From a virus: DNA of 55,311 bases. The notes below the pieces were generated by a model. That model was given only the letters and a program-made list of their open reading frames with translations, made no database searches and had not been told where the DNA came from. Positions 528-55,274 of this stretch are shown piece by piece. The stretch lies in the IMG/VR virus record IMGVR_UViG_3300022700_000082, positions 1-55,311 of that record, one strand, 5' to 3'. Numbering within the stretch: the stretch's first letter is position 1; every line of letters begins with the position of its first letter. The position numbers and the translations under genes are program-made.

Positions 528-3263
528 ATGGGACCTCAGAACCCGTTTTCCGAGTCGCTGCACGCCGAGAAATACCGCGCCCCCGGCGAGTCCTTCCGCG
601 AGGCAATGAACCGCGTCGCCTCCGCCCTGAAGGAAGACGATGAACACTACCACGCATTTCGGGAAGCTCTGCTCGATATGCGCTTCCTGCCGGGTGGCCG
701 GATCCAGGCTGCGGTGGGATCAACCCGAGACGTTACCCCCTACAACTGCTTCGTCTCCCAGACGATCCAGGACTCCTTCACCGCCGGCCGGTCCTCGATC
801 ATGGAGTGTGCCACGCTCGCGGCCGAGACGATGCGACGCGGCGGCGGGATCGGATACGACTTCTCGACCCTGCGCCCCCGTGGCGCGCTGATCCGCAAGC
901 TCCAGAGCAGCAGCTCAGGACTGGTCTCTTTTATGGAGATTTTCGACGCCATCTGCCGCTGCGTCTCCAGCTCCGGCCACCGGCGCGGCGCGCAGATGGG
1001 CGTCCTCCGCGTGGACCACCCGGACATCGAGGAATTCGTCCACGCGAAGCGCCGGCTCGGGCGGCTCGAAGGTTTCAACATATCGGTCGCCGTGACCGAC
1101 GAGTTTATGCTGGCCCTGGAAAACGACGGGCTGTTTGACCTGCAGTTTGAAGGCCAGGTCTACAAGACCATCAAAGCCCGCGCGCTCTGGGAAACCATCA
1201 TGCGGTCCTGCTGGGACTGGGCCGAGCCTGGCGTCCTCTTCATCGACACGATCAACCGGATGAACAACCTGGCCTACTGCGAGACGATCGCAGCGACGAA
1301 CCCGTCGATGCCCGCTGGGACACTGGTCCATACGGACCGCGGGGTCGTTCCCATCGAGACACTAGAAGGAGACAGTTTCCGTGTGAAGTCTCTCGACGGG
1401 ACATGGGCACAGGCAGAGTGCTTCCTCTCTGGTGAGAACGAAGAGCTGCTGGAGCTAGATTTCGGCGGAGGGCGGACCGTGCAGTCCACGCCCAAGCATC
1501 GGTGGCCTGTGCTCCTGAACGGGCGGTACGTCAAGGTAGACGCCAAGGACCTGCGGCCAGGAGACCTAATCCCAGCGCCTCGGAATGAGCGCATGGGGCA
1601 TAGTGTCCGTGACGATCTAAGCTACACGGACGGCCTCGTGGCGGGACTGGCCTTCGGCGACGGCAGCTACAACGAGCGTAGGGATGACGGTCGCGCCTAC
1701 CTACACTTCCACTTGAACCAGGAAGACGATGAGCTGCACTACATTGTGGCGACCTACTTCGGCGCGAACGTGGCGGTCCAGCCGGACGAGGCCGTGGTCC
1801 ACGTCAACAAGGACACGGACGTGCGTGGCTTCATGCAGAGGGTCGGGCTCACCTTTGGCAACAAGGACCAGCTCCCGAGCGAAGTCTGGAGGTCCAACGA
1901 CGAGTTCGTTGCCGGTTTCATCGACGGGCTATTCTCGTCGGACGGCCACGTCTCCCTGGCGAACGCGAAGATGCAGTTCACCAACAGGCGCCGCGCAGTC
2001 TGCCTAGAGCTTTCGAAACTTCTCGGCTTCCACGGAGTGCTCTCGACAGTTCGTACCAGCACATCAACCTTCGACGGTCAGGTGTTCGAGCGTACCGACC
2101 TCACGGTTCCCCACAACAGCGCGAAGCGTTTCGCAACCCTCTTCAGTCTGAGCTGCCTGCGAAAGCAGAACGCCCTGTCGGACCTGTGCGAGACTGAAAC
2201 GCGCGACAACGTGCTGACGGACCACGTGAAGCTGAAGACCGTGCGGACAGCGGGATCGGCCAAGGTATGGGACATCACGGTCTATCACGACCACCACGTC
2301 TTCCCCACGACGTGGTGCTACACCGGGAACTGCGGCGAGCAGCCGCTCCCGCCCGACGGCGCCTGCCTGCTGGGTTCGTTCAACCTGGTGAAGTACCTGC
2401 GCGACGTCGTTGTCGGCCCAGGGAAAACGGCCGTCGCGTTCGACTACGACAAGCTGGTGGCGGACATCCCCCCGATCATCCGCGCGATGGACAACGTCAT
2501 CGACTGCGCGACCTATCCCCTCTACGAGCAGGAGGCAGAAGCGAGGGCGAAGCGCCGGATGGGCCTCGGCGTGACCGGCGTCGCGAACGCCATCGAGGCG
2601 ATGGGCTTCCCCTACGGCTCGCCCGAGTTCTGTACTCGCCTGGAGGCGATCCTTCGGACGATCGCAGACCGCTGCTATCACGCCTCGGTCGACATAGCGA
2701 AGGAGAAGGGACCGTTCCCGGCCTACCGTCCCGAGTACCTGGACAGCGCCTTCCTGGCCCGGCCGGAGTTCGACAAGCTGCGGAACCGGATCGAAGTCCA
2801 CGGCATCCGGAACAGCCACCTGCTCTCGATCGCACCGACCGGGACGATCAGTGTCTGCGCGGACAACATCTCCAGCGGCATCGAGCCGGTCTTTAGTTAC
2901 GCGGCCGACCGCGTCTACATCGGGCCCAACGGACCCGAGCAGGTCGAGGTCCGGGACTACGGCGTCGAGCACCTGGGCGTCCACGGGAAGCGCGCGAAGG
3001 ACGTCACGCTCGACGAGCACCTGGCGGTCCTGAAGGTCGCCTCCGCCTGGGTCGACAGCGCCGTCTCGAAGACCACGAACCTGACCGGCGACGTGCCCTG
3101 GGAAAAGTTCAAGGACCTGTACCTGAAGGCCTGGCGCGCCGGCGTCAAGGGCTGCACCGTCTACAACGTCGACGGCAAGCGGAACGCGGTCCTAACCTCG
3201 AAGGACGAGGACGGGGCCAGCTGCCGGATCGACCCAACTACCGGGAGACAGGATTGTGACTGA
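528..3263 (+). CDS. nrdJ: class II (adenosylcobalamin-type) ribonucleotide reductase, interrupted by an intein
   Basis: 911-aa ORF with an AAGGAGA SD upstream. Extein motifs: RFLPGGRI, GGGIGYDFSTLRPRG, the active-site loop TNP/CGEQPL (split by the insert), and a C-terminal Cys pair (ASCRIDPTTGRQDC). Removing residues 260-601 leaves about 569 aa. Confidence 0.85.
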   Translation: MGPQNPFSESLHAEKYRAPGESFREAMNRVASALKEDDEHYHAFREALLDMRFLPGGRIQAAVGSTRDVTPYNCFVSQTIQDSFTAGRSSIMECATLAAETMRRGGGIGYDFSTLRPRGALIRKLQSSSSGLVSFMEIFDAICRCVSSSGHRRGAQMGVLRVDHPDIEEFVHAKRRLGRLEGFNISVAVTDEFMLALENDGLFDLQFEGQVYKTIKARALWETIMRSCWDWAEPGVLFIDTINRMNNLAYCETIAATNPSMPAGTLVHTDRGVVPIETLEGDSFRVKSLDGTWAQAECFLSGENEELLELDFGGGRTVQSTPKHRWPVLLNGRYVKVDAKDLRPGDLIPAPRNERMGHSVRDDLSYTDGLVAGLAFGDGSYNERRDDGRAYLHFHLNQEDDELHYIVATYFGANVAVQPDEAVVHVNKDTDVRGFMQRVGLTFGNKDQLPSEVWRSNDEFVAGFIDGLFSSDGHVSLANAKMQFTNRRRAVCLELSKLLGFHGVLSTVRTSTSTFDGQVFERTDLTVPHNSAKRFATLFSLSCLRKQNALSDLCETETRDNVLTDHVKLKTVRTAGSAKVWDITVYHDHHVFPTTWCYTGNCGEQPLPPDGACLLGSFNLVKYLRDVVVGPGKTAVAFDYDKLVADIPPIIRAMDNVIDCATYPLYEQEAEARAKRRMGLGVTGVANAIEAMGFPYGSPEFCTRLEAILRTIADRCYHASVDIAKEKGPFPAYRPEYLDSAFLARPEFDKLRNRIEVHGIRNSHLLSIAPTGTISVCADNISSGIEPVFSYAADRVYIGPNGPEQVEVRDYGVEHLGVHGKRAKDVTLDEHLAVLKVASAWVDSAVSKTTNLTGDVPWEKFKDLYLKAWRAGVKGCTVYNVDGKRNAVLTSKDEDGASCRIDPTTGRQDCD
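1305..2330 (+). mobile_element. intein (342 aa) with LAGLIDADG homing-endonuclease domain, inserted in nrdJ between NP and CGEQ
   Basis: Block A SMPAGTLVHTDRGVVPIETL (Ser1) and TxxH block STPKHRW. Two LAGLIDADG-like motifs: LVAGLAFGDGSY and FVAGFIDGLFSSDGHV. C-terminus is ...VWDITVYHDHHVFPTTWCYTGN, followed by the +1 Cys of NPCGE. Confidence 0.8.
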
Positions 3264-3489: not shown

Positions 3490-4279
3490 AAAGTTCTGGA
3501 CTTTCGTTGGGGAACGTGAGACAATACGCATCCGAAAAGAACGCGGCGACGATCCTCCGTTCACTGATGACCCGAGAATGCGAGACTACTACTTCCCGAA
3601 CCTGCGACGGACCGACGACCCGGCAACCGTCTGGCTCCACGGCGCCCTGCTTCGGCGGCTCGAAAGCCCCGACCAGATCGTCCTGGCGTCGGCGGCCTTC
3701 CGGCTGACCGGCGGATCCATCGCGGCCGGGGAGGCGATGGTCCCGATGTTCACCGGCCCCGGCTTCGACGCGGACATCCTGCTGGGCACCCTGGGCCCCC
3801 TGAAGGCCCCGTTCAACGGGACCGTCCACAGGCACCTGCGTATGGCGACGCTGGCCGACCTGTCCGCCGCCGCCTGCACCTTGGGCGCCGCGAACGGCTA
3901 CTGGCCCCTCCTGAAGGGCGCGTCGCTGTATGACGCCCACAGGGCCCTCAAACGGACGCCGAAAATAGGCCCCGATCTGGCCTACGAGATCGTCTGCGAC
4001 CTGCGCCGGACGGCCGTCCTCCGGGACGCCTCCGACGTGCGCACGTGGGCCCACCCCGGCTTGTCGGCCGTCCTGGCGGCCGGGGCTATCACTGACAATG
4101 ACTGGCGCCACACACGCCAGGCAGATCGCCAGGGGACGCTGCAGCTGATGCGGTTCCTACTGGCGGAAGCCCAGATGGACTACCCAGACTGGGAACTAAG
4201 CGAGATACAGCGGTCTTTGACCCTGTACCACTTCTGGGCCCGAGAGGGCAAACCCACGAGGAGATACCGATGGAAATGA
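3473..4279 (+). CDS. alpha-glutamyl/putrescinyl-thymine pyrophosphorylase (aGPT-Pplase)-like protein (tentative)
   Basis: The N-terminal block FWTFVGERETIRIRKERGDDPPFTDDPRMRDYYFPNLRRTDDPATVWL matches my recollection of that family's conserved block (W..ER..IR..K..G...P.TdDP....Y.F.N..R..D..T.W). By-eye comparison only. Confidence 0.4.
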   Translation: MATKTKKFWTFVGERETIRIRKERGDDPPFTDDPRMRDYYFPNLRRTDDPATVWLHGALLRRLESPDQIVLASAAFRLTGGSIAAGEAMVPMFTGPGFDADILLGTLGPLKAPFNGTVHRHLRMATLADLSAAACTLGAANGYWPLLKGASLYDAHRALKRTPKIGPDLAYEIVCDLRRTAVLRDASDVRTWAHPGLSAVLAAGAITDNDWRHTRQADRQGTLQLMRFLLAEAQMDYPDWELSEIQRSLTLYHFWAREGKPTRRYRWK

Positions 4280-5091
4280 TCCGCGCGCGTAGTCCGCAGG
4301 CGGCGATGCCCGCCCTGCTTCAGGCCATGTACGCCGGGGGCGACCTCGACGACGATGGCAACCTGACCCTCGACCACCCGGTCTTGTTCACCTTCGAGCA
4401 GCCCCGCGAGCGGCTGATCTTCTGGCCATGGATCCGCCGGAACCCCGCCGGGGAACTGGCCTCCGCCCTGCAGCCCCTGGCCCAGGCCGAGGAACGCATC
4501 CCCAACGCGGCCGGGACCATCGTGAAGGGAAGCGAGCACTTCATCTTATCGACGCCCAGCCTGCTGGTTCAGGTCCGGATGGATCGGGCCAGCCGGTTCA
4601 ACATGCACGCGGTCGCCTCCGACTCGAACCCGTTCCAAGGTGCCTTCGGGCAGCTGGGCCTCCAGTTGTCGATCCTCCTGGAGCTGCTCGCGGGCGCCGC
4701 GAAGAAGAACGTCGGCGAGCTGACGATCCAGCACCAGCGCCTGGTCCTGCCGAAGACCGTCGTCGCCCAGCTGCTGGGCGTCGAGATGGCGAACATCGTC
4801 GAGGATCCCTACCGGAACATCAAGCCCCGGAAGATCGACGGCCCGCTGGACATCGCGAACATCCTGGCCACGCCCGAGGAGACGATGGGCAAATCCAAGT
4901 GGGTCCGGCACGTCGCGGGTCCCCTGCTGCTCGCCGGTCGCGCGGAGACGGCGGCCGAGGGAATGGAACTCGCCAAGAAGATCAAGGCCGACGACTTCAA
5001 GCGGTCGATGATCGAGTGGTGCGAGGCCGTCCAGCAGGCCGAGGACTTCAAGGCCCAGCAGGAGGGATCTGCCGGTGGCGAAGAAGGCTAG
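4270..5091 (+). CDS. thymidylate synthase / pyrimidine hydroxymethylase fold-like protein (tentative), with no Cys at the expected nucleophile position
   Basis: Weak by-eye similarity to the TS core. FTFEQPRERLIFWPWIRRNP compares with the N-terminal R/N block. STPSLLVQVRMD...FNMHAVASDSNPFQGAFGQLGLQLSILLELLAGAAKKNVGELTIQHQRLVL compares with ThyA APCHAFFQF...[29 protein letters not shown]...GDFVWTGGDTHLY. Ser sits where the catalytic Cys is expected. Confidence 0.3.
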   Translation: MEMIRARSPQAAMPALLQAMYAGGDLDDDGNLTLDHPVLFTFEQPRERLIFWPWIRRNPAGELASALQPLAQAEERIPNAAGTIVKGSEHFILSTPSLLVQVRMDRASRFNMHAVASDSNPFQGAFGQLGLQLSILLELLAGAAKKNVGELTIQHQRLVLPKTVVAQLLGVEMANIVEDPYRNIKPRKIDGPLDIANILATPEETMGKSKWVRHVAGPLLLAGRAETAAEGMELAKKIKADDFKRSMIEWCEAVQQAEDFKAQQEGSAGGEEG

Positions 5092-8182: not shown

Positions 8183-8388
8183 AAGGTCCAGCGGGGTCGG
8201 ACCTTTCGCCCGGCAGAAATGTCTGTCGGAATTGTCGCCAAGCCCAATCGGCGCCGAGGACGGAAGATGTCAAGCAGCGTAGGCGAGAGGCCTACTGCGC
8301 GAGCTGCCATCCTCCGCTCGAAGCTCTCGCAGAGCTGCGGCAGATGTGCGACGAGATCAGGATGCACAACCAGGAGTACTGGGGATGA
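8179..8388 (+). CDS. small Cys-pair (zinc-ribbon-like) protein
   Basis: CRNC ... CASC pairs; ATGA overlaps at both ends. Confidence 0.5.
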   Translation: MKGPAGSDLSPGRNVCRNCRQAQSAPRTEDVKQRRREAYCASCHPPLEALAELRQMCDEIRMHNQEYWG

Positions 8389-10694
8389 TGACACCCGTGG
8401 AATTTTTGCAGCGAGTTCACCCCGGACGACCGTGGATCCTGACTGCCATTCAGCCTAGCCAGAAGGGCATCGAGACGCGAGCCTTCCTGCCCGGCCAGGA
8501 GGCCGAGGCGGAGAAGTGGATCGCGGAAAACAACGGTAAACGGAACTTGTATTGGAGCTGCGCCGAGGTTATCAACCCCGAGGACAAGAAGGCCAGCATC
8601 GACAACGTCGCGGCTGTCCACTGGCTCCACGTCGACATCGACGCTGGGCCCGGCGACCTGCTCGCGGAACTCGACCGGATCAAGGCCCTCGTCACGACGG
8701 ACCTGCCGACCGGCGGCATCGATCCCACGGTCGTCGTCTACTCCGGTGGAGGCTACCAGGCCTTCTGGCAGCTGGAGGAACCGATCCAGGTCCTGGGGAA
8801 CGCGGACGTCGCGGCCGAGGTCGCCCGCTACAACAAGCAGCTGGAGCTGATCTTCGGCGGGGACTCCTGCCACAATGTCGACCGGATCATGCGGCTGCCG
8901 GGGACGATGAACATTCCAAACCAGAGGAAAGTCGCGAAGGGCCGGGTCCCGGTCGAGGCGGCCGTCGTCGAGTTCCGGGAGACGACCTACCCCCTCACCG
9001 CGTTCAGCCAGGCGGCCGACGTCGGCCGGACCGGCGACGCGGACGACGTACAGATCAGTGGGAACGTCCAGCGCCTCCTGTCGGTCGACGACCTCGACCA
9101 GTGGAACGTCCACGACCGGACGAAGGTCATCGTCGTCCAGGGAAACGACCCCGACGAGCCTGACCGCCATCCGTCCCGGTCGGAGTGGCTGTTCGACTGC
9201 GTCTGCAACCTGGTCCGCGCCGAGGTCCCGGACGAGACCATCTACTCCGTCCTGACTGACCCAGGCTTCAAAATCAGCGCCTCGGTCCTGGAGACCTCGA
9301 ACCCTGACCGCTACGCGAAGAAGCAGATCAAGTCCGCGAAGGAGGTCGCGGTCTCCGAGAACCTCCACATGCTGAACGCGAAGCACGCGGTCATCGGAAA
9401 CCTCGGCGGGAAGTGCCTGGTCATCGAGGAAGTCTACGACGAGATGATGCAGCGCGACCGGCTGGTCCGCCAGACCTTCTCGGCCTTCCGGGAACGCTAC
9501 ATGAACAAGTTCGAGACCGTGGCCGTCGGCGACAAGACGAAGCAGGTCGCGATCGGTGACTGGTGGCTGCGCCACCCGAAGCGCCGCGAGTACGATCGGC
9601 TGGTGTTCCAGCCTGGCCGGGACGTCCCCGGCGCCTATAACCTCTGGCGCGGCTTCGGCTGCAACGCCCTGCCTGGGTCGAACCACGAACGCTTCCTGAA
9701 GCATCTCCACGACACGGTCTGCCAGGGCGTCGAAGAGCACTACACCTACCTGGTAGGCTGGCTCGCGCGGGCGGTCCAGCATCCCGACCAGCCTGGGCAC
9801 ACCGCGATCGTCATGCGCGGACGCCAGGGCACCGGCAAGTCCTTCTTCGCGAAGCACTTCGGTCGGCTGTTCGGGCGGCACTTCCTGCACGTCTCGAACG
9901 CCAGCCACCTGGTCGGCAACTTCAACGGGCACCTGCGGGACGCGGTCGTCGTCTTCGGCGACGAGGCCTTCTATGCCGGCGACAAGCGCCACGAGTCTGT
10001 CCTGAAGACGCTGATCACCGAGGAGTCCCTGGTCATCGAGACGAAGGGCGTCGACGCCGAGGCGAGCCCAAACTACTGCCACCTGATCCTGGCATCGAAC
10101 TCGAACTGGGTCGTCCCCGTCGGGGCTGGCGATCGTCGCTACTTCGTCCTCGACGTCGGCGAGGAGTATGCTCGGAACGTCAGGCACTTCGGCGACATCG
10201 CGCGCGACCTGGAGAACGGCGGCTACGAGAACCTGCTCCACTTCCTGATGCACTACGACCTGACCGACTACAACGTCCAGGCGATCCCCGACACCGGCGC
10301 CCGCCGCGACCAGCACGAGGAGTCGCTCGCCCCGCATGAGGAGTGGTGGCTGTCCGTCCTGGAGGACGGCCTCCTGGGCGGCGTGGTCTGGGACCCCGAC
10401 CACGCGGAGATCGTCGTCCCGAACTCCCCCGTCTGGCAGTCCTATCAAACAGCGACGGAGAACACCCCCCTGGTCAGGAAGCTTTCGAATACGAAGCTGG
10501 GCAACTTCCTGAAGCGGATGCTGCCCGGCGACTACCCGAAGCGGAAGAAGATCCGCGTCGATGGACGACCGGAGAACGCGCGCGTCTTTCCGACCCTCGA
10601 CGTCGCCCGGAAGGAATGGGATCGGATCAGCGGAGCGCCTCGTCAGTGGCCCGATGTCTCCCTCATCGACCCCGACGACGACCTGCCCTTCTGA
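8385..10694 (+). CDS. primase-polymerase / SF3 (P4-D5-VirE type) helicase fusion
   Basis: N-terminal motifs HWLHVDIDAG, VVYSGGGYQAFW, DRIMRLPGTMN. Walker A GRQGTGKS and Walker B VVVFGDEA. The ORF's first ATG is 8346, but 8385 is preferred because of its ATGA overlap with the upstream stop and an AGGAG 8 nt upstream. Confidence 0.85.
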   Translation: MMTPVEFLQRVHPGRPWILTAIQPSQKGIETRAFLPGQEAEAEKWIAENNGKRNLYWSCAEVINPEDKKASIDNVAAVHWLHVDIDAGPGDLLAELDRIKALVTTDLPTGGIDPTVVVYSGGGYQAFWQLEEPIQVLGNADVAAEVARYNKQLELIFGGDSCHNVDRIMRLPGTMNIPNQRKVAKGRVPVEAAVVEFRETTYPLTAFSQAADVGRTGDADDVQISGNVQRLLSVDDLDQWNVHDRTKVIVVQGNDPDEPDRHPSRSEWLFDCVCNLVRAEVPDETIYSVLTDPGFKISASVLETSNPDRYAKKQIKSAKEVAVSENLHMLNAKHAVIGNLGGKCLVIEEVYDEMMQRDRLVRQTFSAFRERYMNKFETVAVGDKTKQVAIGDWWLRHPKRREYDRLVFQPGRDVPGAYNLWRGFGCNALPGSNHERFLKHLHDTVCQGVEEHYTYLVGWLARAVQHPDQPGHTAIVMRGRQGTGKSFFAKHFGRLFGRHFLHVSNASHLVGNFNGHLRDAVVVFGDEAFYAGDKRHESVLKTLITEESLVIETKGVDAEASPNYCHLILASNSNWVVPVGAGDRRYFVLDVGEEYARNVRHFGDIARDLENGGYENLLHFLMHYDLTDYNVQAIPDTGARRDQHEESLAPHEEWWLSVLEDGLLGGVVWDPDHAEIVVPNSPVWQSYQTATENTPLVRKLSNTKLGNFLKRMLPGDYPKRKKIRVDGRPENARVFPTLDVARKEWDRISGAPRQWPDVSLIDPDDDLPF

Positions 10695-12303: not shown

Positions 12304-12714
12304 GTGAACCAGTATTGCCTAGAGTGTGGGTGTTGGCTCAAGCTGTACGACCACTATGAATGCAGGAACTGCCGGAACATCTACTCTCGGGAACATGTGA
12401 TCCAGGCCGATGATCCTATGGTGGCCCACGGAATCCGATGCGACACCTGCGAGGGAACCGGAACTGAGGAGCAAACGTTTGAGGAAGCGCACCCCTACGG
12501 AGACACCGTCGCCTACGAGATGCTGGTCGAGTTCGTCGACTGCGAGGAGTGCAGCGGGAAGGGCTACTTCCCGGACGAGAACAAGAAGGCCTGCGTGATC
12601 TGCGGCAGGGACATCCCCGACGGGACCGGCGTCCTGGTCAACGGCTGGCGCGTCCACGAGGACTTCGCGTGCTCGACCGACGAACCCCCGCACCTGGATG
12701 GCTGGGACGGATGA
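12304..12714 (+). CDS. DnaJ-type CxxCxGxG zinc-finger protein
   Basis: CDTCEGTG and CEECSGKG repeats plus additional CxxC pairs. GTG start preceded by GGGAGG. Confidence 0.6.
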   Translation: MNQYCLECGCWLKLYDHYECRNCRNIYSREHVIQADDPMVAHGIRCDTCEGTGTEEQTFEEAHPYGDTVAYEMLVEFVDCEECSGKGYFPDENKKACVICGRDIPDGTGVLVNGWRVHEDFACSTDEPPHLDGWDG

Positions 12715-13516: not shown

Positions 13517-13938
13517 TGGCAAAGGTCAGTGCCCGATCCCGCCTCAACCTCGACAGCGTCGACCCCGCCCTGGGGCAGGTCGTCCTGCAGGCCCTGCAGG
13601 CGGCGCCCCCCTGGCTGGACTTCGCGGTCATCTCCGGGCGGCGGACGCGGGAGGAGCAGCAGGCGCTCTGGCGTACAGGCCGGGACGCCTCCGGGATGAT
13701 CGTCGACACCGACGCGGTCGTCACATTCAAGGATGGGATCAATCTGCGGTCGCGGCACCAGTCCGGCCGCGCGGTCGACATCGTCGCCTACGTCGACGGC
13801 CAGATCAGCTGGGACCCCCGCGACAACGAGAAGTGCTCTGCCTACGTCATCGGCTACGCCGCCGCGCGCGGTATCAAGCTGACCGGCGGGATTGAATGGG
13901 GATGGGATCACGGTCACATCGAACTGGAGCAATCATGA
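13513..13938 (+). CDS. peptidase M15 (VanY / L-Ala-D-Glu peptidase type) endolysin
   Basis: SGRRTREEQ ... RSRHQSGRAVDI ... WDHGHIE matches the H-x6-D ... H zinc triad pattern; 141 aa. Confidence 0.8.
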   Translation: MMAKVSARSRLNLDSVDPALGQVVLQALQAAPPWLDFAVISGRRTREEQQALWRTGRDASGMIVDTDAVVTFKDGINLRSRHQSGRAVDIVAYVDGQISWDPRDNEKCSAYVIGYAAARGIKLTGGIEWGWDHGHIELEQS

Positions 13939-14330
13939 AGCAGCAGATCCTGGACTACATCTTCGACGCCCGCGACTGGGTCGACCAGCGCCGCTACTGG
14001 ATCGCAGCCGGGATCGTCCTGGTCCTCGCGCTCTCATGCCTGACCGCGATCCCGCAGGTGCCCGAGCTGGCTGTCCGGTCCCTCGGTCCGATCACCGTCG
14101 CCCAGTGGACCGACGTCCCTGGCGCCGTCGCCTACCAGCTGCAGGGCCGCGCGAACGGCGAGGACCCCTGGTGCTCCGTCGCGATCGTCTGGGATGGGCA
14201 CCAGCTCTCCTGGCCGTCGATCCCCGGCGCGATGGAGTACCGGATCCGCGCCTGGCGTGAGGACGGGCCCAGCCGCTGGTCGGCATCGGTCCTTGTCTTC
14301 CTACCCGACCGTGAAAGGCAGGACGCATGA
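13935..14330 (+). CDS. N-terminal TM anchor + fibronectin-III-like domain protein
   Basis: Start at MKQQILDY has an ATGA overlap with the endolysin stop. TM segment YWIAAGIVLVLALSCLTAI. The WTDVPGAVAYQLQGR...MEYRIRAWREDGPSRWS pattern is FN3-like. Confidence 0.5.
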   Translation: MKQQILDYIFDARDWVDQRRYWIAAGIVLVLALSCLTAIPQVPELAVRSLGPITVAQWTDVPGAVAYQLQGRANGEDPWCSVAIVWDGHQLSWPSIPGAMEYRIRAWREDGPSRWSASVLVFLPDRERQDA

Positions 14331-14557
14331 AGCTGCTCGTCGTGACGGACAACCTCGCCTACATCGGAGAGGAATCCGCGATGAATGGGACCGCGACGAC
14401 GCTGTCCCAGCCCGCGATCGTCCGGATGGTCCGGTCGGCCGATGCCATCGCATCGGTCGCCGCCCGGCGCCCGGCCGACGAGTTCCTGACGAAGATCGAC
14501 GGCCGCGTGATCATCCCCGATCGCCGCATCCGCGTCGTCGTCGAGTGCGCCTGGTAA
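14327..14557 (+). CDS. hypothetical protein (76 aa)
   Basis: ATGA-coupled ORF with no motif. Confidence 0.5.
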   Translation: MKLLVVTDNLAYIGEESAMNGTATTLSQPAIVRMVRSADAIASVAARRPADEFLTKIDGRVIIPDRRIRVVVECAW

Positions 14558-14647
14558 CAGCCCACGGCGACTGGGGACGCTCCTCTACATTTGGCTCGCG
14601 ACGCGCTGGGACATGGCCACAGAGATGTGCCGGATCTCGGGGCTGTA

Positions 14648-14821
14648 GGCACACTAATTGACACATGGCAGGATGCGCGAAATTCCGCCACTGATCGTGC
14701 ATACCACCAAGCCAGAAGGGACAACGGGGAATCCTCGGGAAGCATGCGGAGCCGTGAGGTATGGCACACGACTTGCTACTACATACATGTAAGCGCAAAC
14801 CAAACAGGAGGAACCAAGATG
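14648..14821 (+). repeat. copy A of a duplicated ~175-nt regulatory cassette (copy B at 15789..15965)
   Basis: Shared blocks: ggcacactaattgacNcatggcaggatgcgcgaaat, atcgtgcat, tggcacacNNNttgctacta, caaaccaaacNggaggNaacaagATGA. Roughly 70% identity by eye. Confidence 0.8.
14762..14777 (+). promoter_or_regulatory. sigma54 (RpoN) -24/-12 promoter
   Basis: TGGCACacgacTTGCT matches TGGCAC-N5-TTGCW with correct GG-N10-GC spacing. Intergenic, about 40 nt upstream of an SD (CAGGAGGA) and the ATG at 14819. Confidence 0.7.
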
Positions 14822-14935
14822 ACACGCAAGCAGACCCTCAGCCTCATCACCGCCGCCACAGCAGCCGCCATCGCGATGCCCTTGGTGATCAAGCTGGTCG
14901 GCCTGCTGACCGCCCTGAACACCCTGGCCAACTAA
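14819..14935 (+). CDS. 38-aa hydrophobic (membrane) peptide
   Basis: MTRKQTLSLITAATAAAIAMPLVIKLVGLLTALNTLAN. Strong SD. First ORF after the sigma54 promoter. Confidence 0.5.
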   Translation: MTRKQTLSLITAATAAAIAMPLVIKLVGLLTALNTLAN

Positions 14936-14946
14936 GGAGCACTACC

Positions 14947-15147
14947 ATGACGACCAAACAAGCACGCAAATTGGGCTACCTGATCAACCGAGGTGCTTAC
15001 TTTGGCACCACCGACGACCGTGCCGACCGCTGGTACATCGAGCGCATCGACGCAGACTGTGTTGACCGCTGCGGCCCAGGCTACAGGACACGTAGAGAGG
15101 CCCTGGACTGCATCGCGGACTTCGCCGCCCAAGAGGTACCCAAATGA
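14947..15147 (+). CDS. hypothetical protein (66 aa)
   Basis: AAGGAG SD upstream. Begins MTTKQARKLGYLINRG... Confidence 0.55.
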   Translation: MTTKQARKLGYLINRGAYFGTTDDRADRWYIERIDADCVDRCGPGYRTRREALDCIADFAAQEVPK

Positions 15148-15494
15148 GGCCAATCTCCCAGATCCGCCGCGACACAGACAACATGAAGAAAGAAGGTAGT
15201 AAGATGGGAATTGGAAAGTATTGCATCGTCCGCACGTATTGTGCTGGAGTGTTCGCTGGCGAGCTTATCAGCCGAAATGGAAAGGAGGGCGTGGTCGTCA
15301 ACGCCCGTCGGTTGTGGTTCTGGTCCGGTGCCGCGACGTTGAGCGAGCTTGCCCTGCGCGGCGTGGGGCGCCCCGAGAAATGCAAGTTCCCCGACGCGGT
15401 ACCCGAAGTCCTGCTGACGGAGATCATCGAGGTCATCGTCTGCACCGCCGATGCGCGGGCGAGTATTGAGGCGGTGCCACCATGGCGAGCATGA
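15144..15494 (+). CDS. conserved phage hypothetical protein (core starts MGIGKYCIVRTYCAGVFAGEL)
   Basis: The ATG at 15144 forms an ATGA overlap with the upstream stop. Alternative starts at 15184 or 15205. The KYCIVRT...ARRLWFWSGAATLSELA core resembles a recurrent phage family, from memory. Confidence 0.6.
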   Translation: MRPISQIRRDTDNMKKEGSKMGIGKYCIVRTYCAGVFAGELISRNGKEGVVVNARRLWFWSGAATLSELALRGVGRPEKCKFPDAVPEVLLTEIIEVIVCTADARASIEAVPPWRA

Positions 15495-15664
15495 TTGACG
15501 ACGGCGACGGCTACGGCACCGACTACGGCTCCGGCTCCGGCTCCGGCGACGGCTACGGCTACGGCTCCGGCGACGGCTCCGGCTACGGCGACGGCTACGG
15601 CTCCGGCTACGGCTCCGGCGACGGCTACGGCTCCGGCGACGGCGACGGCTCCGGCTACGGCTGA
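15482..15664 (+). CDS. (X-Gly)n low-complexity protein, X = Asp/Tyr/Ser/Thr (60 aa)
   Basis: MASMIDDGDGYGTDYGSGSGSGDGYGYGSGDGSGYGDGYGSGYGSGDGYGSGDGDGSGYG. Encoded by degenerate GGCTACGGCTCCGGCGAC tandem repeats (~15497-15661). The start overlaps the upstream gene by 13 nt. Confidence 0.45.
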   Translation: MASMIDDGDGYGTDYGSGSGSGDGYGYGSGDGSGYGDGYGSGYGSGDGYGSGDGDGSGYG

Positions 15665-15807
15665 CGAACGGGCGGGGCGGGCGTAGCGAACGGATGAACA
15701 ACCGCCAGGTGGTCGATTACTTCCTGCGCGAGGCCCGTGCCTGCGAACGGGAGCTGGAAATCCGGAAAACTGGCCGCGTGCTGACGGTGGCACACTAATT
15801 GACCCAT

Positions 15808-15850
15808 GGCAGGATGCGCGAAATCCGGCTCCCGTATCGTGCATCCTGCC
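15808..15850 (+). promoter_or_regulatory. perfect 10-bp dyad GGCAGGATGC-N23-GCATCCTGCC (candidate enhancer/UAS or RNA hairpin)
   Basis: The arms at 15808-15817 and 15841-15850 are exact reverse complements. In copy A (14667-14676 / 14699-14708), 7 of the 10 stem positions can still base-pair. Confidence 0.5.
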
Positions 15851-15859
15851 AATCCCGAA

Positions 15860-15894
15860 GGAACAATGAGGAACCCCCTGGAACAACAAGGAAC
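15860..15894 (+). promoter_or_regulatory. four GGAAC pentamers at exact 10-bp spacing, immediately upstream of the sigma54 -24 element
   Basis: GGAAC at 15860, 15870, 15880 and 15890. Copy A has degenerate GGA(C/A/G) at 14719, 14728, 14738 and 14748. The distance from the last repeat to the -24 GG is 15 nt in both copies. Confidence 0.6.
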
Positions 15895-15903
15895 CATAGG
15901 ACA

Positions 15904-15919
15904 TGGCACACCGGTTGCT
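15904..15919 (+). promoter_or_regulatory. sigma54 (RpoN) -24/-12 promoter
   Basis: TGGCACaccggTTGCT. Intergenic, about 43 nt upstream of an SD (ACGGAGG) and the ATG at 15963. Confidence 0.7.
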
Positions 15920-15962
15920 ACTATTGGGCGTACGCAGCAACAAACCAAACGGAGGCAACAAG

Positions 15963-16127
15963 ATGAAGAACCTGCTCAACGACAACAAGATCGACAACCT
16001 GCTGAACCGCATCGAGATCGCCGACGACAACGACCGCTCCTGGATGACCGACGTCGCCACCAGCGATCCATACCACAAGCCCACCGAAGACAACACCCCC
16101 AACTGGCGCATGACGCTGCACGGATAA
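15963..16127 (+). CDS. hypothetical protein (54 aa)
   Basis: Begins MKNLLNDNKIDNLLNRIEIADDNDRSW... First ORF after the second sigma54 promoter. Confidence 0.5.
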   Translation: MKNLLNDNKIDNLLNRIEIADDNDRSWMTDVATSDPYHKPTEDNTPNWRMTLHG

Positions 16128-16138
16128 GGAGAGCAACC

Positions 16139-16348
16139 ATGGAAACATTCCCCGAAATCATGCACCTGATCCTAACCCATCGCACCACGCCCATCGCCGA
16201 AGACAACGCGGGCTACCAAGGGATCGAAGGAGACGGCTTCACGTTCGGCATGGGCCACGACACGCTGGTCATCGACGTCCGATGCGACATGGCCATCATC
16301 CAACTCTTCCGCGACGACGAATACCTGACCCAATGGGAGGTCCGATAA
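16139..16348 (+). CDS. hypothetical protein (69 aa)
   Basis: AAGGAGAG SD upstream. Begins METFPEIMHLIL... Confidence 0.5.
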   Translation: METFPEIMHLILTHRTTPIAEDNAGYQGIEGDGFTFGMGHDTLVIDVRCDMAIIQLFRDDEYLTQWEVR

Positions 16349-16611
16349 TGGCTACCTGCACCTGCGGAAAGAGAATGTCCAAGTACGCGACCGAATGCCG
16401 CGCCTGCGCTAAGGCACACACCCAGCGCCTCCGCGCCGAAGGGCTCGCCATCCTCGCCAAGGGCGTCTGCCCCGACTGCGGCAGGCCGCTCAAGCGCAAC
16501 CTCGCCATCGCCGGATGGTGGCAATGTGAACAATACGGCGCAGACACGCACCGCGCCGACCCCACGCAGCCCAGCTGCAACTGGCAGATCATCATCCCCC
16601 AGGAGGACTGA
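16348..16611 (+). CDS. zinc-ribbon protein (87 aa)
   Basis: CTCG...CRAC and CPDCG...C pairs. The start ATG shares 1 nt with the upstream TAA stop (TAATG). Confidence 0.55.
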   Translation: MATCTCGKRMSKYATECRACAKAHTQRLRAEGLAILAKGVCPDCGRPLKRNLAIAGWWQCEQYGADTHRADPTQPSCNWQIIIPQED

Positions 16612-16613
16612 TC

Positions 16614-16772
16614 ATGACACGCAAAGAAGCACTCATCCGAATCGCCCAAGAGCACATGCGAAAATCAGACGAAAGCCTGTCACCTCGACAAATGGCGAAA
16701 ATCAGACGGCTCCGAGATCAGGTCCAATCCATGCTGCTGCTGCGCGAAACGAGGAGATCTAACCATGCCTGA
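16614..16772 (+). CDS. hypothetical basic helical protein (52 aa)
   Basis: AGGAGGA SD upstream. Absent from the track because it is under 60 aa. Begins MTRKEALIRIAQEHMRKSDE... Confidence 0.45.
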   Translation: MTRKEALIRIAQEHMRKSDESLSPRQMAKIRRLRDQVQSMLLLRETRRSNHA

Positions 16773-16926
16773 ACGGCGACCGCGAACAAACACTGCGTGA
16801 CCAGGTGGTCGCTGCACACAACGCCCTACGGGCCGGAAGATCCTCGGCGAGCCGCGCGGCGTATGACGCTGCATGGATACGGCATAGGCCGGATCCTGAG
16901 CGCCGTCTGCTAGGTCAAAAAAAAGC

Positions 16927-16955
16927 TTTACTTTTGGGCCCAGATAGACTACAAT
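16927..16955 (+). promoter_or_regulatory. sigma70-type promoter TTTACT-N17-TACAAT with upstream A8 tract
   Basis: -35 at 16927-16932, -10 at 16950-16955, and an A-run at ~16917-16924. Lies in a 200-nt intergenic gap. SD GGAGGA and the ATG at 16975 follow. Confidence 0.6.
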
Positions 16956-16974
16956 AAATACTGGAGGAAACCCG

Positions 16975-17504: not shown

Positions 17505-18005
17505 GTGAACTCGTCCAACAGTTCGCTGATCCGCACCGCGCAAGAGATCTGGCGGCAGGACCTGCGCATGCTGCTGGACGAGGGCGGGAAAGCCATGGGC
17601 TATCGCGACCCGTTCTTCCGGCGCGTGGCGTTGCCGATGTGGCTGGCGCGGCGGGAATACCCTTCTGCTGCGCTGGACACATTATGGCGGACGATTGGCG
17701 CATGGCTGTCATGTATTGGATCAAAGGAGCGATGGATGTTGTCGAAAAGTAGTGCCGCGCATAACCGGCGGCTGTTTCTGCTGAAGCAGGTGCCGTTCTT
17801 CGGTGCCGTACTGGCCAAGGACCTGGAGCACATGGACAAGGTGGAACACCGTGTGGGCGATCTGGCTGCGCTTGTGTCGGGCGGAACCGTCCGCAGGTTG
17901 CGTCGCGCAGGGAAGATGCCCAGGTATTCGAAAACGTGGCGAGGTGCGTTTCGTGTGTGGCGTGAGCGGTATATGGATCCGCGCACGAATGAAGTAGGAC
18001 CATGA
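17505..18005 (+). CDS. hypothetical protein (166 aa, GTG start) in lower-GC cassette
   Basis: Longest sense ORF in this stretch. Codon usage is visibly less GC3-biased than in flanking genes. No motif. Confidence 0.4.
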   Translation: MNSSNSSLIRTAQEIWRQDLRMLLDEGGKAMGYRDPFFRRVALPMWLARREYPSAALDTLWRTIGAWLSCIGSKERWMLSKSSAAHNRRLFLLKQVPFFGAVLAKDLEHMDKVEHRVGDLAALVSGGTVRRLRRAGKMPRYSKTWRGAFRVWRERYMDPRTNEVGP

Positions 18006-18687: not shown

Positions 18688-19050
18688 ATGAACAAGTGCC
18701 CGGTCTGTAAAGGGCGTGGGGGTTCTCCTGGGATTGCATGCGGCGAGGACAGATGCAAGGACGACAGAGGGCTCTGGAGCAACGCGAACCGGATCCTCTG
18801 CGAACAATACCACGGCCCGCCGCCGGTCGACCCCGACGGGAAGCGGATCGTCTGCCGCCACCTGAACCACGACCTGCGGCTCGAGAACCTGGCCTGGGGG
18901 ACGGACGACTACCGCGAGATGATCCGCCTGCGGGAGACCGGGATGACCTGCCAGGTCGGCTGCTCCGTCGGATACGTCTCCGACATCTGCCGAGGCGGGG
19001 CCGCCGCCTGGGAGACCGAGGACCTGTGGGAGGAGGTCGGCGCCGACTGA
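18688..19050 (+). CDS. HNH-like endonuclease with C-terminal HTH-like segment (tentative)
   Basis: CPVC...C...C N-terminus. IVCRHLNHDLRLENLAWGTDDY resembles the H-N-(N) core of phage HNH enzymes. Starts 4 nt after the methylase stop. Confidence 0.4.
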   Translation: MNKCPVCKGRGGSPGIACGEDRCKDDRGLWSNANRILCEQYHGPPPVDPDGKRIVCRHLNHDLRLENLAWGTDDYREMIRLRETGMTCQVGCSVGYVSDICRGGAAAWETEDLWEEVGAD

Positions 19051-19150
19051 ACAGGGCCCTTCAAAGTCCGGGGCTGCCTGTGAAATTTTGGCCAGGGGAC
19101 CACCACCCCCCATCCCGGCGGGGGGGAGCCGCCCCCCTCGTCCTGGGCGC

Positions 19151-19971
19151 ATCGTTCCTCGCGTTCTGCCCGATCGCGTCGTCCCTCGTTGTTCCCCATC
19201 GTTCCTCGGCCGAGAGCATGTGACGGAGCGAACTCACAATCATTGCCGATCGTTCCCCGTAGGCCCACAGCTCGAGCGATCCTTCCCCATTGTTCCGCAT
19301 ATCACTCGCATCGTTCCTCAGCCCGAGCGATCCGTCCCCTATCGTTTCCAATCGCGAGCGTTGAGGGTCGATCGTTCCTCAGCCTGAGCGATCGTTCCCC
19401 ATAAGGCCCAATCGCGAGCGATCATTCCCCCTGGCGCCCAATCAGGGCACAAGGCAGTGCATGCTGGGCGCGTCGTTCCCGATAAGGGCCCAGCGCTCGG
19501 CGTCGTTCCCCAAAGCGCCCCGTTGTGTAAAAATGGCCACACTCCCCGTTGGTCCTTGTCGTTCCTGCCCTTTTGGCAGGTCGCAGCGTTCCCCATTGTT
19601 CCTCCCCGGATTCAGGCGCGCGCGCGCGAGCCAGAATATGTGGGCGGGGATTAGCTTGTTCCACCTTAGCCCGATTCGTTCCGGCCCTGTTCCGACCTTG
19701 GTGTCACGGTAGGAACGCCCTCAATCAGCCCAAAGCGCGCGCCCCAAGGCAATCTTTCTTCTTTTGTTCCTACCGTTCCTACCAAGAGAAGAAGTTAAGT
19801 AAAGAATGGAAAAACGCGCCCCCTACGCCCTGCGTCGTTCTGCCACGCAACTAGGGCCCCAAGGTCGGAACGGTAGGAACACTTGCATAAGTCGGTTCCG
19901 GATATACACTTGCGCCGTTCTGACCCTTGTTCCGACCTAGTCTAGGTAGGAACGCCCGAAAAGCGGGAACC
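19151..19971. repeat. non-coding array of 25 GTTCC/GGAAC pentamers (consensus ~TCGTTCC[CT]C), helically phased; candidate iteron/ori, pac or regulator-binding region
   Basis: Top-strand GTTCC at 19154, 19191, 19201, 19252, 19292, 19313, 19374, 19394, 19475, 19505, 19561, 19588, 19598, 19658, 19678, 19689, 19766, 19775, 19895 and 19929. GGAAC at 19712, 19867, 19876, 19949 and 19966. There are also about 8 one-mismatch variants. No credible ORF in the region. Confidence 0.85.
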
Positions 19972-20030
19972 CTCGGCGCCTCGGCATCGTATAAGATCCC
20001 GCTGCCCGTCACCACGGAAGGGCGCTCGGA

Positions 20031-20513
20031 ATGGTCGACAACCTGCCTATCAAGTTCGACGCCGACGCGCGCCATCGGTTCCTGCAGTACTACGCTTTGA
20101 CGGGCCAGATCCAGAAGTCGGCTCGTGAGATCGGCATCTCACCTGCGACGGTCCGGCGGGTCGCGAAGCAGGACCCGGCCTTCAAGGAGGCGATGGAGGA
20201 GGCGAAGCAGGACTTCGTCGAGGCGATGGAGCGTGAGGTTGTTCGGCGCGCGGTCATGGGCGTCGACGAGCCGGTCTTCCAGCAGGGCGAGCAGGTCGGC
20301 GAGGTCCGGAAATATTCCGACGCCCTGCTGATGATGCTGATGAAGAAGCTGGATCCGACCTACAAGGAGAAGCACCAGATCGACGTCTCGCTGGGTGGCG
20401 GGATCCTTGCGGTCCCTGCCCAGGAGGCGGAGGATGAGTGGGAGAAGCGGAACTCAATCGACGCGGACTACGCGGTCGTAGATGAGGAGGAGCCCGATGC
20501 AGAAAACGATTGA
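20031..20513 (+). CDS. terS: terminase small subunit (HTH type)
   Basis: HTH SAREIGISPATVRRVAKQDPAFKEAMEEAK followed by ...RKYSDALLMMLMKKLDPTYKEK, the typical small-terminase pattern. Acidic C-terminus. Lies upstream of terL. Confidence 0.8.
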   Translation: MVDNLPIKFDADARHRFLQYYALTGQIQKSAREIGISPATVRRVAKQDPAFKEAMEEAKQDFVEAMEREVVRRAVMGVDEPVFQQGEQVGEVRKYSDALLMMLMKKLDPTYKEKHQIDVSLGGGILAVPAQEAEDEWEKRNSIDADYAVVDEEEPDAEND

Positions 20514-28724: not shown

Positions 28725-29102
28725 TTGTCGAACATCAGTTTCAGGTTCAACCTAACGATCACTCAGGGGGATGACCGGGCTCTGGTGTTCGTATTCTCGG
28801 ATGATGACGGCAACCCGGTGGACATCTCGACATGGGAGATCTTCTACACGGCGAAGGCGGACTACGCAGATCCGGACGTTGAGGCTTTGATAGCGCTGGA
28901 GCCGGCCGACTTTACGGCCAGTGATAGTGGTACCGGGACAATCGACAGGGTGACTGCGAACATCCCCGCCTCCGCGACCGGAGCCATGGCCGCCGGCACC
29001 TATTACCAAGACCTCCAGGTAAAGAAGGCCGGCGGCCTGGTCTCCACGATTGGTCGCGGCCAGCTTGTGATTGATGCACAGGTCACGCAGAGGACAAGCT
29101 GA
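28725..29102 (+). CDS. hypothetical beta-rich (Ig-like?) structural protein, TTG start
   Basis: 125 aa. Pattern is ITQGDDRALVFVF.D..GNPVDIS.W.I....... Confidence 0.45.
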   Translation: MSNISFRFNLTITQGDDRALVFVFSDDDGNPVDISTWEIFYTAKADYADPDVEALIALEPADFTASDSGTGTIDRVTANIPASATGAMAAGTYYQDLQVKKAGGLVSTIGRGQLVIDAQVTQRTS

Positions 29103-54108: not shown

Positions 54109-55274
54109 AGTGGAGCCTCCAACAGGAGACGGCGCTTCGAGACGTCGACCGCTGGCTGACCGATCCCAACGCCGGGCAGGTCTTCCGCCTGTTCGGCTAC
54201 GCGGGCACCGGGAAGACGACGCTCGCGAAGCACCTTGCCCAGGACGTCGACGGCGTCCTGTTCGGCGCGTACACCGGGAAGGCCGCGCACGTCCTCCAGC
54301 AGAAGGGCTGCCCGGCCCAGACGATACACTCGATGATTTACATCCCGAAGAGGAAGTCGGCTGAACGACTGTACCGGCTGGAGAAGATTCTCCTGAAAAT
54401 GGACGAGGACGATCCCGACGCCGAGGAGGTCGTTCGGCAGATCCGCGAGGAGCAGCAGAACCTGAAGCGCCCGGCGTTCACCCTGAACACCGACTCGCCG
54501 GTTCGTGGGGCGAACCTCGTCGTCATTGATGAATGCTCGATGGTCGACGAACGGATTGGCGAGGACCTTTTGCACTTCGGTGCGAAGGTCTTGGTCCTCG
54601 GCGACCCGGCCCAGCTTCCGCCGGTCCATGGCGGTGGATACTTCACCGCGAAGGGTCCAGACGTCCTCCTGACTGAGATCCACCGGCAGGCCGCAGGGAA
54701 CCCGATCATCAAGCTGGCGACCAACGTCCGCGAGGGCCGCCCCCTCCAGGAAGGTACATACGGTGACAGTCGCGTGACCTATGATGTGGGTCCCGAGGAT
54801 GCGCTGGATGCTGACCAGATCCTGGTCGGCATGAACCGGACCCGCCGGCAGGTGAACCTCCGGATCCGCCAGCTCTGCGGCCACGAGGGCGTCGTCCCCG
54901 AGGTCGGCGAGCGACTGGTGTGCTTGCGGAACAACCACGAGCTGGGCCTTTTGAACGGCTCGATCTGGTTCGTGACCAAGGCCTACGGCGACGACGACCC
55001 CGTCGTCCTGACCGTCCGCCCCGAGGACGAGCGCTGGACCCAGGACATCCTGGCCCACCGTGCGCACTTCGCCGGGGAGGAACTCGACCACTGGACCCGG
55101 CTCGAAGCCGAGGAGTTCGCCTACGGCTACGCCCTGACCTGCCACAAGTCCCAGGGGTCGCAGTGGGACAACGTACTGGTCATTGACGAGAGCGGAGTCT
55201 TCAGACACAACTCACGTCGGTGGCTTTACACCGCGATCACCCGCGCTGCGGAGAAAGTGACTGTCAGGCTATGA
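54105..55274 (+). CDS. RecD/Dda-like SF1B DNA helicase
   Basis: Walker A GYAGTGKTT and Walker B VVIDECSMV. Also LVLGDPAQLPPV, EIHRQ and TCHKSQGSQWDNVLV. The ATG at 54105 forms an ATGA overlap with the upstream stop. The ORF's upstream extension to 53982 overlaps the previous gene. Confidence 0.85.
   Translation: MKWSLQQETALRDVDRWLTDPNAGQVFRLFGYAGTGKTTLAKHLAQDVDGVLFGAYTGKAAHVLQQKGCPAQTIHSMIYIPKRKSAERLYRLEKILLKMDEDDPDAEEVVRQIREEQQNLKRPAFTLNTDSPVRGANLVVIDECSMVDERIGEDLLHFGAKVLVLGDPAQLPPVHGGGYFTAKGPDVLLTEIHRQAAGNPIIKLATNVREGRPLQEGTYGDSRVTYDVGPEDALDADQILVGMNRTRRQVNLRIRQLCGHEGVVPEVGERLVCLRNNHELGLLNGSIWFVTKAYGDDDPVVLTVRPEDERWTQDILAHRAHFAGEELDHWTRLEAEEFAYGYALTCHKSQGSQWDNVLVIDESGVFRHNSRRWLYTAITRAAEKVTVRL

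Follow-up and report, generated by a model that had tools for sequence, protein, structure and literature searches.

Two paralogous putative sigma-54 promoter regions of enhancer type, with helically phased GGAAC pentamers, in a 55-kb phage genome

Genome context and the duplicated cassettes

The window, that is, the whole stretch of 55,311 nucleotides that was analysed, is a complete 55-kb phage genome assembled as a circle, bases 1-99 being identical to bases 55213-55311. Its G+C content is 63% and every credible gene lies on the + strand. The genome encodes an intein-containing ribonucleotide reductase, a 5-hmdU DNA kinase-like protein and a family A DNA polymerase, together with a dCMP deaminase, a primase/SF3-type helicase, a ClpP-like protease and an endolysin; the terS gene is followed by terL and the structural genes. 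The DNA polymerase shares only about 52-53% identity with its counterparts in Pseudomonas siphoviruses of the Mesyanzhinovviridae (Ab18, PaMx11 and relatives), and no nucleotide-level relative was found among cultured phages by blastn.

Two stretches of the + strand, cassette A (14647-14821) and cassette B (15788-15965), each running from an upstream block through an ATG, are paralogues of one another. Cassette A leads into operon A (14819-15664, + strand), which consists of a 38-aa hydrophobic peptide (14819-14935), a 66-aa product (14947-15147), a DUF6948 protein (15144-15494) and a 60-aa peptide of D/G/Y/S repeats (15482-15664). Cassette B leads into operon B (15963-16772, + strand) with four small ORFs to which no function was assigned (15963-16127, 16139-16348, 16348-16611 and 16614-16772). 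The first product after copy B, an acidic protein of 54 aa, is unrelated to the hydrophobic peptide that follows copy A.

The original prediction had described a diverged duplicate of about 175 nt with the same order of elements in both copies, and had called for a formal alignment. All five elements were found at their places, and the paralogy was upheld by the alignment: the copies share 73.9% identity over 180 nt in blastn (E=5.6e-26) and 130 of 180 columns in MAFFT, the overall identity thus being 72-74%, while the flanks are unrelated (32-37%). The boundaries of the similarity are sharp, since it begins at the GGCACAC motif and ends just past the start codon. Because the similarity ends at the start codon and the downstream genes are unrelated, the cassettes are to be regarded as a regulatory unit and not as a gene duplicate. 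It follows from the paralogy that the two copies represent one evolutionary event kept twice, hence effectively a single observation. A profile built from both copies matched at these two places only, within the window and about 2.6 Mb of fetched loci. The cassette is really non-random and well organised as a regulatory unit; its elements, their order, their spacing and their statistical non-randomness can be read directly from the sequence.

At the 3' end of each cassette lies a leader, whose conservation had also been predicted and was confirmed, CAAACCAAAC(A)GGAGG and AAGATGA being present in both copies. Leader A (14796-14821, + strand) comprises a CA-rich stretch, AGGAGG and the ATG at 14819, and leader B (15941-15965, + strand) a CA-rich stretch, GGAGG and the ATG at 15963. 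Both CA-rich leaders (31 nt and 33 nt) are predicted to be unstructured, with z=+1.1 and +1.6 respectively. A short ORF at 15694-15798, which ends in the block of copy B, was rejected as a gene, as copy A lacks it and has an in-frame TAG.

Promoters, upstream block and phased pentamers

Each cassette has a sigma-54-type promoter on the + strand, TGGCACACGACTTGCT at 14762-14777 in copy A and TGGCACACCGGTTGCT at 15904-15919 in copy B. The criterion for such a promoter was a spacing of exactly 10 bp between GG and GC inside the extended consensus TGGCAC-N5-TTGCW. Exact matches to this consensus occur twice in the whole genome (14762 and 15904), against 0.01 expected from dinucleotide-preserving shuffles. 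The downstream element of each copy, originally read as a -24/-12 promoter, turned out to be a textbook match to the full consensus. The two promoters differ from each other at three bases, all in the unspecified spacer; invariant consensus positions with changes confined to the spacer are what would be expected under selection on the consensus. Both lie in intergenic DNA on the coding strand and, counted with the C of the GC set as -12, their predicted starts fall near 14788 (A) and near 15930 (B), 31 nt and 33 nt from the ATG, which is preceded by a strong Shine-Dalgarno sequence. It is likely that both cassettes use sigma-54, and the promoter assignment is strong for a call made from sequence only.

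Other readings of short motifs in the cassettes were tried and rejected. GGAAC is a typical -35 motif of ECF sigma factors, and in the cassettes no conserved -10 stands 16-17 nt downstream of it in both copies, a 10-bp tandem being found instead. TTGAC(A/C) in the upstream block was considered as a sigma-70 element and discarded, no acceptable -10 being present.

The upstream block spans 36 nt on the + strand, GGCACACTAATTGAC-A-CATGGCAGGATGCGCGAAAT at 14648-14683 in copy A (-140 to -105 from the predicted start) and GGCACACTAATTGAC-C-CATGGCAGGATGCGCGAAAT at 15789-15824 in copy B (-141 to -106). It is the same in both copies at 35 of 36 positions, compared with the 72-74% of the whole cassette. 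Its first 15 nt, GGCACACTAATTGAC, form a sigma-54-like site preceded by A in copy A and by T in copy B, and even with three mismatches allowed this sequence occurs in the genome only at 14648-14662 and 15789-15803. The duplicated -24/-12-like half-site that had been claimed here was recovered in both copies together with its deviation, GA instead of GC at -12, and on account of this deviation it was not counted as a promoter. The GG of this upstream site precedes the GG of the promoter by 115 bp (copy A) or 116 bp (copy B), which corresponds to about 11 helical turns, and this spacing between block and promoter has been kept despite indels elsewhere in the cassette.

A dyad overlaps the block. 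In copy B it covers 15808-15850 on the + strand with arms at 15808-15820 and 15838-15850; the perfect inverted repeat noticed earlier, GGCAGGATGC (15808-15817) and GCATCCTGCC (15841-15850) with 23 nt between them, was reproduced, and the stem proved longer than noted, with 13 pairs including one G-T, or 15 pairs in RNAfold. In copy A (14667-14708, + strand, with arms at 14667-14679 and 14696-14708) the inner part of the stem, 7-8 pairs, is all that has been preserved intact; the pairing of 7 out of 10 positions claimed for this copy was confirmed for the outer positions, where three substitutions are found, all of them uncompensated.

In NtrC-type systems, activator-binding enhancers typically take the form of a conserved protein-binding module placed some 70-150 bp or more ahead of the -24/-12 element, and the upstream module of both cassettes has just such a position and spacing. 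The enhancer-dependent reading that had been suggested stood up in part: the geometry fits, as the block lies about 105-140 nt upstream of the predicted start, its distance to the promoter is fixed at 115/116 bp and the filler is phased; the block itself is a candidate upstream activator sequence (UAS). We give about even odds to the block being an activator site. It showed no match to the activator consensuses that were checked, it has no compact palindrome of the kind bound by most activators, and the second sigma-54-like site at its start has no place in a standard UAS. Of the proposed FleQ box GTCaNTAAAtTGAC the block contains only the right half, as AATTGAC, and the box has itself been judged unreliable (PMC6120874).

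Between the block and the promoter, at -70 to -36 in both copies, four pentamers follow each other at intervals of 10 bp. In copy B (15860-15894, + strand) all four are GGAAC, exactly 10 bp apart, and in copy A (14718-14752, + strand) they read GGGAC, GGAAT, GGAAG and GGAGC, each one base off GGAAC, with starts at 14718/28/38/48 and the phase kept. Thus, both the GGAAC run at 15860/15870/15880/15890 and its degenerate counterpart exist as had been claimed. Among Markov shuffles of the genome 0 of 300 reached even three GGAAC at 10-bp spacing. The distance from the pentamers to the GG is the same in both copies, and the -24 GG, whose place had been correctly predicted, stands 15 nt downstream of the start of the last pentamer.

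A pentamer array beside terS, and related phages

The same pentamer recurs elsewhere in the genome. The main array (19154-19970, both orientations) consists of 20 GTTCC and 5 GGAAC plus degenerate copies, and is located in the non-coding region 19050-20030, between terS and an ORF with an HNH-type motif that was identified by eye. The 25 exact GTTCC/GGAAC fall within 19154-19966, whereas the genome as a whole averages 0.7-1.1 per 500 bp, an enrichment of about 20-fold. The spacings are 10, 20, 21, 30, 40, 51, 60, 61 and 81 bp, mostly multiples of about 10 bp, and the only other phased set of exact GTTCC/GGAAC in the genome is that of cassette B. Furthermore, the degenerate variants of the array (GTCCC, ATTCC, CTTCC) are variants found in copy A, and the TTGTTCC form of cassette B is covered by the flanking consensus of the array, (a)T(C/T)GTTCC(y)c. 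The array is repeated, phased, clustered and non-coding, as iterons are. At 19690-19960 inverted sets, TGTTCCTACCGTTCCTACC and GGTCGGAACGGTAGGAACA, stand on either side of an AT-rich stretch (19783-19815), and cumulative GC skew is lowest at 19-20 kb. Given the inverted sets, the skew minimum and the position between the HNH-like ORF and terS, the 19-kb region is probably a replication origin, a cos/pac region, or both.

Since the pentamer of the cassettes is also the core of this array of about 25 repeats, the cassette pentamers are likelier to be protein sites than an intrinsic bend, and we think it somewhat more likely than not that they are protein sites shared with the array. This link between the cassettes and the 19-kb region is a new result of the present analysis. 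Of the two options originally offered for the phased GGAAC, sites for a factor or protein-free curvature, the former is thereby favoured and the latter is weak. At -70 to -36 the pentamers could equally serve repression. Candidate binders can be named by position or analogy: the primase-helicase (8346-10694) and TerS (20031-20513). TerS proteins bind multiple sites and wrap DNA (PMC4669245), and primase-helicases of the P4 alpha type have a C-terminal winged helix (PMC2777425). For the C-terminus of the primase of this phage a homology search found nothing, and a single-sequence model (pLDDT 39) was too poor to show a winged helix.

Four phased GGAAC are also common in viral contigs, with more than 119 matches, mostly plain 10-mer tandem repeats, in a search made with this pentamer alone; among the matches listed none adjoins a sigma-54 site. 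Therefore the link between cassettes and array is drawn from enrichment within this genome only.

Searches of the viral, metagenome, genome and cultured-phage collections turned up no relative with the cassette. The whole cassette gave nothing relevant against cultured phages in blastn, and the pattern of block, gap and promoter had 0 matches in the pattern search. The exact 15-mer GGCACACTAATTGAC had 37 matches in viral contigs, which were dismissed as chance, inflated by redundant contigs, or, in one locus (L019), as part of an AT-rich tandem repeat. Neighbouring and distant genes were used as anchors as well. ORF 13935-14330 had no homologue in the searches, the endolysin returned no loci, and DUF6948 is widespread in unrelated phages, one locus (L039) having the gene pair without the cassette. 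A relative found through its primase (L041, 74% identical) stops short of the region and is not collinear. TerL scans of the viral, metagenome and genome collections yielded one close relative (L042/L122, 82% identical, 4.8 kb), all others being at most 57% identical and belonging to MAG bins of many phyla, which point to no single host. The close relative L042 lacks a long array, and has GGAACCCTC 17-18 nt upstream of GTATAAG, just before terS; as a small footprint this suggests that the pentamer is functional.

Among the TerL-anchored loci of related phages from the viral and metagenome collections, about 1.7 Mb in all (the genome-collection loci L202-L250 not included), only the metagenomic contig L162 (ENA activated sludge NODE-2170), whose TerL is 52% identical, showed comparable sigma-54 sites. 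Beside its terS gene, about 500 bp of non-coding DNA contain five perfect TGGCACGC-N3-TTGCT sites, of which two are in tandem and some back to back. Like the phage analysed here, L162 combines perfect sigma-54 sites in non-coding DNA with short phage-specific repeats (GAGTAGAG), but its sites stand immediately upstream of terS in both orientations, its repeat motif is another one and its sequence is not homologous to the cassette.

Pseudomonas phage YuA (Yuavirus, Mesyanzhinovviridae) belongs to a related group, with a DNA polymerase about 52% identical to that of the present phage, and has no RNA polymerase of its own. It is reported to rely on promoters of both the sigma-70 and the sigma-54 type (PMC10914365). 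Three '-24/-12' fragments are marked as active in its record; these '-24/-12 consensus' fragments showed promoter activity and one of them was recovered by cappable-seq (PMC10914365, record annotation). The YuA fragments differ from the promoters described here in that they lie in the structural gene region and that none was a full consensus match in our scan, and YuA has neither a duplicated cassette, nor the GGCACACTAATTGAC block, nor the GGAAC phasing, nor any sequence similarity to the cassette. Together, the YuA reports and the L162 sites make the use of sigma-54 in this phage group plausible, though rare.

Proposed function and alternative explanations

We propose that the cassettes are two paralogous, enhancer-type promoter regions dependent on sigma-54 (RpoN), each driving about four small accessory genes, and we assign this reading a probability of roughly 0.55. 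The sigma-54 RNA polymerase of the host would form a closed complex on the exact -24/-12 element, and this complex needs an AAA+ enhancer-binding activator to open. No GAFTGA motif or activator-type Walker A was found in the six frames of the phage genome, no activator domain in Pfam/PHROG scans of 50 ORFs (those left out being mostly structural genes and some small ORFs), and no activator ATPase in the fetched related loci. Since the phage has no recognisable activator ATPase, an activator of the host must serve the promoters if they are sigma-54-dependent. It would occupy the stretch from about -140 to -80, with the invariant 36-nt block and the dyad next to it, and would contact the polymerase through DNA looping. 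The pentamers at -70 to -36, one per helical turn, are probably bound on one face of the DNA by a sequence-specific protein, for which the primase-helicase/initiator or the small terminase may be considered; this protein would bend the DNA in the stead of IHF or would block the loop, and would couple both operons to the state of replication or packaging. The IHF consensus WATCAANNNNTTR is absent from both cassettes, on both strands and with one mismatch allowed, which is compatible with another factor doing the job of IHF. Finally, the unstructured CA-rich leader with its strong ribosome-binding site would provide efficient translation. The enhancer and architectural roles of the parts of the cassette are reasonable predictions. 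A more elaborate form of the model, which we regard as rather unlikely, would see a compound enhancer in which iterons of the phage itself stand in for IHF as architectural or gating element and the access of a host sigma-54 activator to the polymerase is gated by the iteron protein of the array of about 25 sites, so that host signalling and replication or packaging are integrated at a single promoter, with the GA-at--12 site as a non-productive dock for the polymerase.

It might be that the sigma-54 promoters are real and that the phased GGAAC act purely by intrinsic curvature, replacing IHF without a protein. The exact 10-bp phasing between block and promoter and the missing IHF consensus would suit this explanation, and the curvature prediction that had been called for came out divided: in the wedge model copy B is notable (98.9th percentile in the genome), while copy A reaches only the 91st. 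A-tracts are absent, the bend predicted by the wedge model reaches about half the value of an A-tract control, and the roughly 20-fold concentration of the pentamer in a separate non-coding array points to sequence recognition instead, hence we consider the curvature explanation unlikely. The same low likelihood is given to the possibility that the 5' block acts as RNA on read-through transcripts, as a processing, stability or antitermination (nut-like) signal heading the operons. The genes share one strand, no terminator lies between the cassettes and the upstream genes, and the hairpin of copy B (13-15 bp, z=-4.8) is preceded by a conserved single-stranded box; moreover, two diverged copies with the same order of elements are reminiscent of nutL and nutR. 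In copy A, however, the three uncompensated changes break the outer stem and the z value is -1.2, the hairpin has no trailing U-tract, and transcription initiated from the upstream sigma-54-like site would begin within the 5' arm. The window has no Rfam match at the gathering score, and the region 14500-16100 gave one chance-level match at E<=1; as for an antiterminator, one ORF has a weak Q-like match in PHROG (E=8e-4), and nothing else hints at such a protein.

The motif GGCACAC-N3-TTG, present in four copies, two per cassette, could alternatively be the operator or promoter of a phage-encoded factor that loops the DNA. The upstream site shares this motif with the promoter in perfectly conserved form, the 115/116-bp spacing of about 11 helical turns keeps the two in helical phase, and YuA has promoters that are thought to need a phage cofactor. 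This explanation appears improbable as the downstream sites agree with the sigma-54 consensus over its whole length, its invariant GC and final W among the matched positions, the copies differ in the non-consensus spacer only, the motif is asymmetric, unlike typical operators, and no sigma-like or regulator domain was seen among the scanned ORFs. The cofactor promoters of YuA are also of a different type, CTTTAC...CACTATA: the motif CTTTACTTCTTCGG-N8-CACTATA is absent from both cassettes, and the one related site in the window, CTTTAC-N17-TACAAT, stands as a single copy at 16926, downstream of operon B. Another explanation takes the promoter as secondary and the cassettes as cis-acting accessory sites of replication or packaging, with an initiator or TerS on GGAAC, similar to crr of P4, where two direct repeats with initiator iterons lie a few kb from ori. 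The cassettes are likewise two direct repeats with four iteron-like pentamers each, 3.3-4.4 kb from the main array, and the array is origin-like with its inverted sets round an AT-rich stretch and the GC-skew minimum at 19-20 kb. Additionally, the phage has a primase plus SF3-type helicase, the organisation of P4 alpha (PMC2777425). This possibility is nonetheless very improbable: it is the promoter, the leader and the 5' block that are best conserved, the pentamers are degenerate in copy A, and each cassette stops exactly at the start codon.

Taken as enhancer-type sigma-54 promoter regions, the cassettes resemble the proteobacterial promoters of this class (glnAp2/NtrC, Pu/XylR, nifH/NifA) in the exact -24/-12 element and in a conserved module about 100-140 bp upstream, and they also share the fixed helical relation of module and promoter and an intervening segment, in which many of those promoters have an architectural site. 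Unlike those promoters, the cassettes reside in a phage genome without an activator gene of its own, their module is not a compact palindrome and opens with a sigma-54-like site (GA at -12), and four 10-bp-phased pentamers stand in place of an IHF site. The 19-kb array, on the other hand, is similar to SaPI/P4-type origins and to the TerS sites of cosB/pac regions, since a short motif is repeated on one helical face in non-coding DNA next to terS, with inverted sets round an AT-rich stretch. The four copies of the cassette differ from the iterons of SaPI/P4 or cosB/pac in their place within a promoter region, between an enhancer-like block and the -24 element.

Sigma-54 promoters fire only with an ATP-driven activator, which usually answers an environmental or metabolic signal. 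If the proposed model is true, a lytic-type phage without an activator makes part of its programme conditional on host signalling. To our knowledge, sensing of the host state of this kind is barely documented in phages, YuA being the main precedent. Should the sigma-54 prediction fail, the cassettes would be an ordinary duplicated phage promoter region. The cassettes also point to an iteron-binding protein that may connect transcription with replication or packaging, and they offer a compact system in two natural variants, the pentamers and dyad being strong in one and weak in the other.

The non-coding region upstream of terS

Between an HNH-like ORF and terS the window contains a non-coding stretch of about 1 kb (19050-20030), in which approximately 25 exact GTTCC/GGAAC pentamers, together with degenerate copies, are arranged in helical phase. 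Within it, an AT-rich stretch (19783-19815) is bordered by inverted iteron sets, and the minimum of the cumulative GC-skew falls in the same 19050-20030 interval. The non-coding stretch as a whole probably serves as origin, as cos/pac region, or as both.

Directly 5' of terS, GGAACCCTC is followed after 17-18 nt by GTATAAG, both in the window (19949-20030) and in L042, the closest relative (745-830). The surrounding DNA of the two phages does not align, and the motif pair itself is conserved. The pair may constitute an activator-dependent late promoter, where the -35 position is occupied by GGAAC.

Sigma-54-type and YuA promoter-like sites

In L162 (3270-4270), a phage contig from activated sludge that is a distant relative (TerL 52% identical), the non-coding DNA 5' of terS contains five perfect TGGCACGC-N3-TTGCT sigma-54-type sites within roughly 500 bp. 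They occur in both orientations, two of them in tandem, and are interspersed with GAGTAGAG repeats. A site of another type, CTTTACTTTTGGGCCCAGATAGACTACAATA, is located in the window just 3' of operon B, the four small ORFs downstream of cassette B (site at 16926-16956); it is similar to the Pseudomonas phage YuA promoters of the form CTTTACTTCTTCGG-N8-CACTATA, which carry the annotation that a phage cofactor is needed, and it is the sole site of this YuA-cofactor type in the window.

Genes around the cassettes and nucleotide metabolism

At 15144-15664 a short ORF consisting almost entirely of D/G/Y/S repeats, built from DGYG units with a DNA period of 12 nt, comes after a DUF6948 gene and overlaps it; the same gene pair was also detected in L039 (6001-6469), an unrelated low-GC phage contig. 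A 136-aa ORF (12304-12714) has a cysteine-rich stretch and weakly matches (E=8e-4) a PHROG whose annotation is antitermination protein Q-like; it may be relevant to the handling of read-through into the cassettes.

An intein that includes a LAGLIDADG domain splits the ribonucleotide reductase large subunit (528-3263), the Pfam matches lying inside residues 303-589. Two separate ORFs, 4270-5091 and 17505-18005, gave weak matches to opposite ends of a single thymidylate synthase/hydroxymethylase PHROG (profile positions 1-66 by one, 253-322 by the other). At the nucleotide level, only 17592-17639 resembles thymidylate synthase genes of Pseudomonas phages.

Genome ends and the fibre-like ORF

A perfect 99-nt direct repeat at the termini (1-99 and 55213-55311) identifies the window as a circular or permuted assembly, and the genome itself measures about 55.2 kb. 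The 731-aa fibre-like ORF (29102-31297) has low third-position GC, and it harbours an internal 107-nt direct repeat, the two copies of which (29495-29601 and 29804-29910) are 85% identical.
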